A stretch of 25,521 nt of DNA from a virus, in UHGV virus genome UHGV-0301809; one strand, given 5' to 3'. Each line of letters starts with the position of its first letter. Within the stretch, counting starts at the first letter, position 1. A program made the translations under genes and the position numbers. The notes under the pieces are model-generated. The model was given only the letters and a program-made list of their open reading frames with translations. It was not told where the DNA came from and made no database searches. Shown in pieces: positions 3,677 through 5,675 of the stretch.

Positions 3677-3892
3677 ATGTACTTGACACTTCAGGAGTGG
3701 AACGCTCGCCAGCGACGCCCAAGAAGCCTTGAAACAGTTCGTCGATGGGTGCGCGAATGCAGGATATTCCCTCCTCCGGTTAAGGATGGAAGAGAGTATC
3801 TGTTCCACGAATCAGCGGTAAAGGTTGACTTAAATCGACCAGTAACAGGTAGCCTTTTGAAGAGGATCAGAAATGGGAAGAAGGCGAAGTAA
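3677..3892 (+). CDS. xis: excisionase, lambda Xis type
   Basis: Translation MYLTLQEWNARQRRPRSLETVRRWVRECRIFPPPVKDGREYLFHESAVKVDLNRPVTG... is near-identical to my recollection of phage lambda Xis; overlaps int by 20 nt as in lambda. Confidence 0.9.
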   Translation: MYLTLQEWNARQRRPRSLETVRRWVRECRIFPPPVKDGREYLFHESAVKVDLNRPVTGSLLKRIRNGKKAK

Positions 3893-4751
3893 TGAGCGCC
3901 GGGATTTACCCCCTAACCTTTATATAAGAAACAATGGATATTACTGCTACAGGGACCCAAGGACGGGTAAAGAGTTTGGATTAGGCCGAGACAGGCGAAT
4001 CGCAATCACTGAAGCTATACAGGCCAACATTGAGTTGCTATCAGACAACGGGCGCGAATCACTGATAGACAGAATCAAAGGCGCTGACGTAATCACTCTT
4101 CATACGTGGCTTGACCGATATGAAACAATCCTCAGCGAGAGGGGTATCAGACCGAAAACTCTACTCGACTACGCCAGCAAAATCAGGGCAATCCGAAGAA
4201 AATTGCCGGACAAACCGCTCGCTGACATATCAACGAAAGAGGTGGCAGCAATGCTAAACACCTACGTAGCAGAAGGTAAAGCGGCTTCCGCAAAATTAAT
4301 CAGGTCAACCCTTGTTGACGTTTTTCGTGAGGCAATAGCCGAGGGGCATGTGGCAACGAATCCGGTAACAGCAACCCGTACAGCAAAGTCAGAAGTAAGG
4401 CGCTCAAGGCTGACAGCTAATGAGTATGTCGAGATTTACCATGCAGCCGAACCTCTCCCTATCTGGCTAAGGCTGGCGATGGATTTGGCCGTCGTTACAG
4501 GGCAGAGAGTCGGCGATTTGTGCAGAATGAAATGGTCAGACATAAACGACAACCATCTTCACATTGAACAGAGTAAAACAGGGGCTAAACTCGCCATTCC
4601 GCTAACGCTAACGATTGACGCGCTCAATATCTCATTGGCTGATACACTACAGAAATGCAGGGAGGCCAGCAGCAGTGAAACTATATGTCAACGGACTGGG
4701 TTAGTTGAATTTACAACCATGCTCAGTATCTCGATAAGCGCAGAGAAATGA
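3873..4751 (+). pseudogene. int: lambda-type tyrosine integrase, C-terminally truncated (292 aa versus about 356 aa)
   Basis: N-terminal 270 residues align with lambda Int (MGRRRS.ERRDLPPNLYIRNNGYYCYRDPRTGKEFGLGRDRRIAITEAIQAN..., TGQRVGDLC, EQSKTG); homology ends near nt 4690 and the ORF stops at 4751, so the catalytic His/Arg/His/Tyr block is missing; no plus-strand ORF continues it. Confidence 0.7.
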
Positions 4752-4981
4752 TGCAGTGGTGGGCGGACTGGCTTGATGAAAAGGTGGAGTGATCCACCTT
4801 AACTATCGAATGACACAAATCCTTGCAATCCAGTGCAAAGCTTTGTGTACCTTAGTTTTGTCTCATAGGTAATTCTGCTTTAACTGCGATGCAGGAATCT
4901 GTCACCAGACGCACGTCTCGTTGTTTTATGGTTTTCCGTTCATGATTAATATGTTAGCTTGTCAAAGTTTGTGTTTAAGAT

Positions 4982-5653
4982 ATGGTGATTGATGCAATGT
5001 TAAGCGTTCAGATGACTCCACAAGCAAAAGTTAGCTTCGAGGAGCAATGTTTTTTTCATGCTTCAGGTCTTGTTGTTGCCCCAATAAATGTTGGAGCATT
5101 CTCCTACTTTGGCGCTAATTGTATGCTCGGCGGCTTTACGATGGGTAGATTTTGTTCAGTTGCTCCAGGAGTAAAAATTGGCCTTGGCGAGCATGAAACT
5201 GGGTATTTTTCTACGCATCCTTTTTTCTTTGGCTCAAAAAATGGTTTTAAAATCCCTGATGGTATAGGAATGCAACGCGACCTCTCTCAACAGAAGCATG
5301 GTATACCAAGAATTGGTCATGACGTATGGATAGGTGCAAATGCGGTTATCAGGCGAGGTATAACTATTGGTACTGGCGCTGTTATTGCTGCTGGCGCTAT
5401 TGTCACCAAAAATGTCGAGCCATATTCAATCGTAGGTGGCGTTTCTGCAAAACACCTAGGGTACAGATTTGAGGAATCAATCATCAAAGAGTTACTGGAT
5501 AGCCAATGGTGGGAATATGATTTAAGCTCATTTATTGGGATTGATACAAGGACACCGACTACTTTTTTAGAGCAGTTTAATGCTATAAAAGATAAAAAGA
5601 AGGCATCTTATAAGAGATTTACAATTCTTCCATCCGGTGAAATTGTTGAATAG
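4982..5653 (+). CDS. hexapeptide-repeat acetyltransferase (XAT / CatB / Vat-like left-handed beta-helix)
   Basis: Motifs [52 protein letters not shown] and a C-terminal [10 protein letters not shown] resembling the WW motif of xenobiotic acetyltransferases; AT-rich by eye; start codon uncertain (ATG 4982, 4997 or 5009). Confidence 0.8.
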
Positions 5654-5675
5654 CGCATCCCTGCGCTATATTTTA
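5651..5675. terminator. hairpin between convergent genes (acetyltransferase / tailspike), probable bidirectional terminator
   Basis: TAGCGCA-TCCC-TGCGCTA (5651-5668) followed by TATTTT on the plus strand; stem includes the acetyltransferase stop codon and abuts the tailspike stop. Confidence 0.5.

Follow-up and report, generated by a model that had tools for sequence, protein, structure and literature searches.

Truncated HK022-type integrase gene and missing attP in the P22-like phage contig UHGV-0301809

Why does the integrase gene of the virus genome UHGV-0301809 stop before its catalytic residues, and could the phage still integrate? The window, a stretch of 25,521 nucleotides, is the complete MEGAHIT contig ERZ27264785:k141_33098 and carries P22-like virion genes. 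An open reading frame (ORF) at 3873-4751, here called int', had been described from the letters alone (the sequence-only reading) as a lambda-type integrase gene broken by the arrival of an AT-rich accessory module. Compared with intact relatives, the window lacks a single block of 532 bp, which holds the catalytic end of int, the phage attachment site attP and a terminator. We regard the window as most likely showing the genes of a P22-like phage with an HK022-type integration module in their vegetative (unintegrated) order, and the phage itself as very probably a real, integration-defective deletion variant of a P22-like (Lederbergvirus-type) E. coli phage.

The truncated integrase gene and xis

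The features at and to the left of the break are the following.

3677-3892, plus strand: xis (excisionase), 71 amino acids (Pfam PF07825, E 1e-40; BLASTP against HK022 Xis)
3873-4751, plus strand: int' ORF, 292 amino acids (translation; as in the sequence-only reading)
3873-4685, plus strand: codons 1-271 of an HK022-type tyrosine integrase, comprising the arm- and core-binding domains and, with Arg212 and Lys235, the first half of the catalytic domain (nucleotide identity, tblastn, Pfam)
4686-4751, plus strand: out-of-frame read-through tail of int', 21 codons (CQRTGLVEFTTMLSISISAEK) and stop (translation)
4685/4686, no strand: deletion junction, ...GAAACTATA / TGTCAACGG... (global alignment, three-way junction comparison)

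Domain assignments with Pfam placed the arm-type DNA-binding domain at residues 1-68 of Int' (PF09003, E 3e-28) and the core-binding SAM-like domain at residues 81-158 (PF02899, E 3e-14) and 94-171 (PF22022), while the catalytic Phage_integrase profile was matched only at positions 2-96 of its 172. In an alignment with the full-length members of its 90% cluster, Int' retains TGQRVGDLC (Arg212) and EQSKTG (Lys235), and the FHELRSLSARLY...LLGHKSDSMAARY block with His308, Arg311, His333 and Tyr342 (lambda numbering) is missing; a complete catalytic domain (Arg-Lys-His-Arg-His-Tyr) is thus not encoded. Using tblastn, HK022 Int residues 1-271 were mapped to 3873-4685 (97% identity, E 2e-176), and residues 272-357 found no counterpart anywhere in the 25.5-kb window, the best E of 0.14 being noise. 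This search for a split or relocated C-terminus covered the contig, with the rest of the genome lying outside it. Truncation ahead of the catalytic residues, and the lack of any other frame or place in the contig that restores them, were therefore correctly read from the letters, and a split gene with its catalytic region elsewhere is not found in the window.

The assignment to the lambda type requires correction. Window 3650-4685 is 96.7% identical at the nucleotide level to xis-int of coliphage HK022 over 1036 bp (megablast), and xis-int reaches up to 97.9% with copies in E. coli prophages; int' at 3873-4685 is 97.6% identical to int of the prophage in AVS0578, described below, but only about 81-82% identical to lambda/434-type int. 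The gene is accordingly of the lambda family, with 271 matching residues where about 270 had been counted, and of the HK022 type (96-98% nucleotide identity). Likewise, the unrelated tail ending at the stop at 4751 is present but consists of 21 residues instead of 20; in intact relatives, the DNA beneath it is non-coding or relic sequence past the terminator.

The possibility that Int' represents a family of naturally short, 292-residue recombinases was considered as well. In the protein collection, the exact protein was found on a single contig, the window. The shorter of the aligned cluster members are shortened at their N-terminus, with the catalytic C-terminus retained, and one further short member, from a 980-bp contig, is merely cut off at the end of that contig. 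As the short members thus either keep the catalytic end or are contig-end fragments, such a family can be dismissed on the available sequences, and int' is a pseudogene. A protein search with a 41-residue peptide spanning junction and tail returned nothing, which is a weak test, the query being too short for the word index. The int' allele is without obvious extra decay, and where it differs from HK022, intact alleles mostly share the polymorphism, which suggests that the deletion is probably recent.

The xis gene had been called intact, which holds for 71 of its 72 codons. Its product is identical to residues 1-71 of HK022 Xis (71/71, BLASTP) and lacks the last residue, Ser72, owing to a C-to-A change at 3891 that converts the Ser72 codon TCA (3890-3892) into a TAA stop; in the overlapping Int frame, the same change results in His7Asn. 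HK022 and the phage Gally of E. coli LF82 (OV696608) both have C at the equivalent position. Xis is thus a lambda-type excisionase by PF07825 and by its full-length homologue, one C-terminal residue short.

The missing 532 bp and the arrangement in intact relatives

The closest intact arrangement was found in E. coli AVS0578 (NZ_CP124374), whose torS and torT genes flank a P22-like prophage. HK022 has its attB between the same two genes (PMC6814406), and Gally was shown experimentally to reside there (PMC9928086). At its torS end, the AVS0578 prophage has attL, an intact int of 357 codons, xis and an Ant-type antirepressor gene, matching the order Ant, xis, int' of window 2932-4685. At its torT end, behind attR, lie the CatB-related acetyltransferase and tailspike genes known from the window, with 98-100% identity to it from the first base after the break.

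For a direct comparison, the two AVS0578 prophage ends were joined in silico at the core TTCACCTTAAG, and this virtual attP form was aligned globally to window 3600-5070. The alignment contains a single gap of 532 bp, flanked by 97.6% identity over 1086 bp on the left and 100% identity over the first 74 bp on the right. Matches obtained with megablast have the same limits: HK022-type xis/int matches in phages and E. coli genomes stop at 4685, and right-hand matches begin exactly at 4686 in five complete E. coli genomes (AVS0578 and four others), the DNA from 4686 onwards being that which adjoins attR in torS/torT prophages. Nucleotide alignment to HK022-type int and to AVS0578 therefore locates the breakpoint at 4685/4686. 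The junction is flush and without microhomology, with no bases common to both parental contexts. Gally has a full int and attP in the same layout; between the corresponding flanks, it carries about 536 bp that the window lacks.

Of the 532 missing bp, 261 bp are int codons 272-357 with the stop codon; the rest is made up of the P' arm, the core, the P arm, and a hairpin followed by a T run. The core, TTCACCT(A/T)AAG, occupies positions 335-345 of this segment, and the attP feature annotated in HK022 (227 bp; 3791-4017 of stretch L004) falls wholly within the deleted interval by alignment. The hairpin (-27.2 kcal/mol, z = -5.2), with U6 behind it, lies where lambda has tI/sib and is conserved in HK022 and Gally; it was not flagged by a simple terminator scan of the AVS0578 stretch L001 and was clearly revealed by folding. 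In agreement with the sequence-only reading, attP is absent: the core motif TTCACCT(A/T)AAG was not found on either strand of the whole window, and no cognate attP lies beside int'. Between 4690 and 5000, where an att core or tRNA fragments might have been left, the core motif search, ARAGORN and Rfam (E up to 5) yielded neither a core nor a tRNA or tRNA fragment.

The right endpoint coincides with the end of the terminator T run. A position at a mosaic module boundary was rejected for it, as HK022-type homology runs about 20 nt past the endpoint in the alignment of HK022, Gally and AVS0578. Two short elements follow.

4686-4708, plus strand: final ~20 nt of the HK022-type integration module, normally located behind the T run of the tI-like terminator (HK022/Gally/AVS0578 alignment)
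4709-4792, plus strand: relic of the 3' end of an IntS/Sf6-type integrase gene, IYNHAQYLDKRREMMQWWADWLDEKVE and stop (tblastn, alignment)

The relic corresponds to residues 359-385 of HK633 IntS (90% identity, E 1.6e-14, tblastn), that is, to the last 27 residues, including the IYNH motif with the catalytic Tyr. Restoration of the catalytic Tyr of Int' by fusion to this relic was rejected: the relic and int' are in different frames, a stop immediately precedes the relic, and His/Arg/His would still be absent. Compared with the HK633/Sf6/HK620-like IntS integrases, all but these 27 residues of the gene is missing, as is the attP that follows HK633 int; since the relic stops short of the HK633 attP position, no alternative att site is evident. 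RefSeq marks the AVS0578 copy (L001 6024-6106, adjoining attR) as a frameshifted, N-terminally missing pseudogene, 'hypothetical protein', which is consistent with its reading as a relic.

With respect to known systems, the window shares with the HK022 integration module the gene overlap and order, Xis (71/71) and Int 1-271 (97%); it differs by the absence of Int 272-357, the 227-bp attP, the hairpin terminator and Xis Ser72, and by residing in a P22-like podovirus, whereas HK022 is an HK97-like siphovirus. With the AVS0578 prophage and Gally, it shares Ant, xis, int, the attP-distal region with the IntS relic, and the tailspike; both of these keep the 357-codon int, attP and the terminator, the 532 bp that the window lacks, and Gally has another tailspike and no acetyltransferase. 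Deletion mutants of the lambda att/b region are integration-defective deletion derivatives of a comparable kind. A further parallel is the Streptococcus thermophilus phage TP-778L, which acquired a truncated int via aberrant excision (PMC3952083). It resembles the window in its phage gene order, truncated int and lack of a functional attP, but arose by a homologous crossover between int and an int remnant, whereas the junction described here is without homology; TP-778L moreover propagates lytically, while the phage of the window is known from a contig only. Loss of int in the other environmental P22-like isolates Louie and Dewey was also considered and ruled out, as both have intact IntS-type integrases.

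Formation of the junction, its consequences and other explanations

On the preferred reading as a deletion derivative, the parental order would have been Ant, xis, int, attP, tI-like terminator, IntS relic and acetyltransferase, with the tailspike gene on the opposite strand. One illegitimate, flush-ended deletion of 532 bp would have removed the catalytic end of int, attP and the terminator, so that int' would now read 21 codons into the downstream DNA before it stops. The deletion could have occurred in replicating circular or concatemeric phage DNA, or when a torS/torT prophage excised aberrantly through two crossovers that both lay within it; the two routes would give identical products. 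Recombination by Int itself at a secondary site is unlikely because neither endpoint lies at a core. The preferred reading accords with the single 532-bp gap and with the structural, packaging and early-left genes, which are long ORFs with the expected Pfam families.

Since both the catalytic part of Int and attP are absent, neither integration at torS/torT nor site-specific excision would be expected, in line with the earlier proposal that integration had been inactivated. By analogy with lambda and HK022, an Int without His308, Arg311, His333 and Tyr342 should be incapable of catalysis, the loss of attP should deprive the reaction of its substrate, and Xis would be left without a target in cis. 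Such a phage could grow lytically or, at best, form abortive or unstable lysogens. By the same analogy, transcripts from pI or pL would no longer be stopped or retroregulated behind int. Read-through into the acetyltransferase gene is possible, as no terminator-like site was found on the plus strand between int' and that gene.

Four points weigh against this reading. The junction rests on one metagenome contig. The Int' protein is a singleton and the 22-mer across the junction, GAAACTATATGTCAACGGACTG, had no exact match in IMG/VR, the GTDB representative genomes or the JGI metagenomes, providing neither independent confirmation nor a sign of spread. The contig covers about 60% of a P22-like genome, with the immunity region among the roughly 15 kb outside it, where a second integration system could be located. 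Lastly, all intact relatives found differ by 2-3% from the int' allele, and the immediate parent is not among them.

A chromosomally retained element is one of the alternatives. The window could represent the internal attP-type junction of a tandem double prophage, a phage with a second integrase in the approximately 15 kb off the contig, or an element that entered a resident relative by homologous recombination, with the deletion merely locking it in. The contig indeed ends before any flank and covers part of the genome, tandem lysogens contain a junction in phage order at which such a deletion could occur, and related prophages are very frequent, with matches to part of the region in 3174 of 5426 complete E. 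coli genomes. However, the junction itself occurs in none of these 5426 genomes, the 25.5 kb contain no second integrase or att-like core, and identical tandem copies would normally break or collapse the assembly at this place. We therefore consider a retained element quite unlikely.

An assembly artefact would require the false joining of two real sequences, for example of attL-side and attR-side prophage ends or of two phage strains. That the junction is present in a single metagenome contig and was seen nowhere else, neither in a phage record nor in a complete E. coli genome by megablast, fits such a joining. De Bruijn assemblers such as MEGAHIT, however, require a shared k-mer for a false join, and every k-mer of a contig must occur in the reads. 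The two parents share no repeat or k-mer at the flush join, so that, given this general behaviour of MEGAHIT, recurrent chimeric reads would be needed; moreover, the endpoints do not fall at the att core, where joins of prophage ends would be expected. An artefact is therefore very unlikely, and the sample very probably contains the junction.

One end of the contig, at position 1, lies within cIII/kil of the early-left operon, and the other, at 25521, just past the small terminase gene. The immunity, replication and lysis regions are not on it; the assembly may have broken at mosaic regions common to other lambdoid phages in the sample.

In a further scenario, which builds on the deletion, the phage would belong to a lineage that lives without integration, and the dead Int', which keeps its arm- and core-binding domains, would act together with Xis in trans on resident HK022-type torS/torT prophages and block or perturb their integration and excision. 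If so, loss of the terminator would let early-left or pI transcripts enter the O-acetyltransferase gene during infection, and the insertion of three HNH homing-endonuclease genes into the structural region (listed below) would fit frequent lytic co-infection. We regard this scenario as highly improbable.

The remaining explanation is that of the sequence-only reading, in which an exchange brought in a new AT-rich conversion/tailspike module with a crossover inside int, truncating the gene and removing attP. The region is in fact mosaic, with G+C falling after about 4800, and the acetyltransferase and tailspike genes travel together (window 4814-8048; NZ_LT599830 5010-8235; AVS0578 L001 6001-9356) and are found behind at least two integration modules, namely the HK022-type one at torS/torT and that of NZ_LT599830, a separate 41-kb phage record of E. 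coli NRZ14408 with a 386-residue integrase and homology to the window from 4814. The flanks also differ in their identity to AVS0578, with about 97.6% on the left and 99-100% on the right, which leaves room for an illegitimate join of two parents. However, the identical module and its proximal sequence adjoin an intact HK022-type attP and int in AVS0578 and four other E. coli genomes, with matches from 4686, and the gene order on both sides is collinear with an AVS0578-type parent, the one internal gap being the only difference. The real module boundaries are at about 4709 and 4814; these exchange junctions, 20-130 bp rightward of the break, are older and are present also in phages with an intact int. 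As the module already stands beside intact int-attP in close relatives, its exchange is not supported as the cause of the truncation, and this explanation is the least probable of all.

If the junction is real, the deletion variant constitutes a natural case of a temperate P22-like coliphage that has newly lost the ability to integrate, and such losses are a first step of temperate phages towards an obligately lytic life. It also calls for caution in assigning lifestyles from metagenomes, because detection of int and xis would score the phage as temperate even though it would be unable to lysogenise by integration. All parts come from well-known families (HK022-type Xis/Int/attP, P22-like virion genes, hexapeptide O-acetyltransferase). 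Deletion derivatives of temperate phages lacking int/att have long been known; this allele is new and a singleton. Being one loss-of-function allele in a system already understood very well, it opens no new question.

Acetyltransferase, tailspike and HNH insertions

The genes to the right of the break are as follows.

4982-5653, plus strand: hexapeptide-repeat (CatB-related) O-acetyltransferase gene (Pfam Hexapep, E 1e-11; RefSeq name in relatives)
5650-5669, no strand: G+C-rich, terminator-like hairpin between the convergent acetyltransferase and tailspike genes
5673-8048, minus strand: tailspike gene (Pfam PF09008, E 2e-62; PF12708; weak PF13884)
8020-8562, plus strand: HNH_3 homing-endonuclease-like ORF between tailspike and mnt-arc
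18439-18960, plus strand: HNH_3 homing-endonuclease-like ORF between coat and scaffold
22105-22605, plus strand: HNH_3 homing-endonuclease-like ORF between portal and large terminase

The segment at about 4706-4870, which begins with the IntS relic, is conserved in many lambdoid phages (434, HK633, IME10, Kapi1 and Gally; megablast), being common to those with lambda-type, HK022-type and IntS-type integrases; it may act as a patch of homology at which modules are exchanged. The primer OPM51 (TGGCAATCCAGTGCAAAG) was used to map the first Gally-Perceval hybrid junction (PMC9928086); its site lies in the Gally copy of this segment.

Composition and Pfam matches agree with the sequence-only reading of this side as a drop in G+C followed by an acetyltransferase gene and the tailspike gene, of which the 3' end lies at 5673. 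G+C is about 0.47-0.51 across int and drops to 0.35-0.44 from about 4800 through the tailspike gene. The acetyltransferase gene occupies the slot where P22-like phages carry conversion genes; its exact protein was found on 124 contigs, and the RefSeq homologues start 5 codons later (218 amino acids). The tailspike has an N-terminal P22-type head-binding domain (8048 side), followed by a pectate-lyase-like receptor-binding part and a chaperone-like C-terminus at the 5673 side, and outside the head-binding part no close DNA match was found among phage records. The C-terminus gave weak Pfam matches to the endosialidase chaperone (Peptidase_S74) and to the end of the endosialidase catalytic domain. 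O-antigen acetylation may plausibly be linked to the specificity of the tailspike.

All three HNH_3 ORFs are squeezed in between conserved genes and run in the opposite direction to these neighbours. The insertion between portal and large terminase had no match among 50,697 phage records; that between coat and scaffold recurs with 99% identity in Dewey and Louie, two isolates from sewage, and is lacking in IME10, APC_JM3.2 and others. One of the three ORFs carries an AP2 domain.

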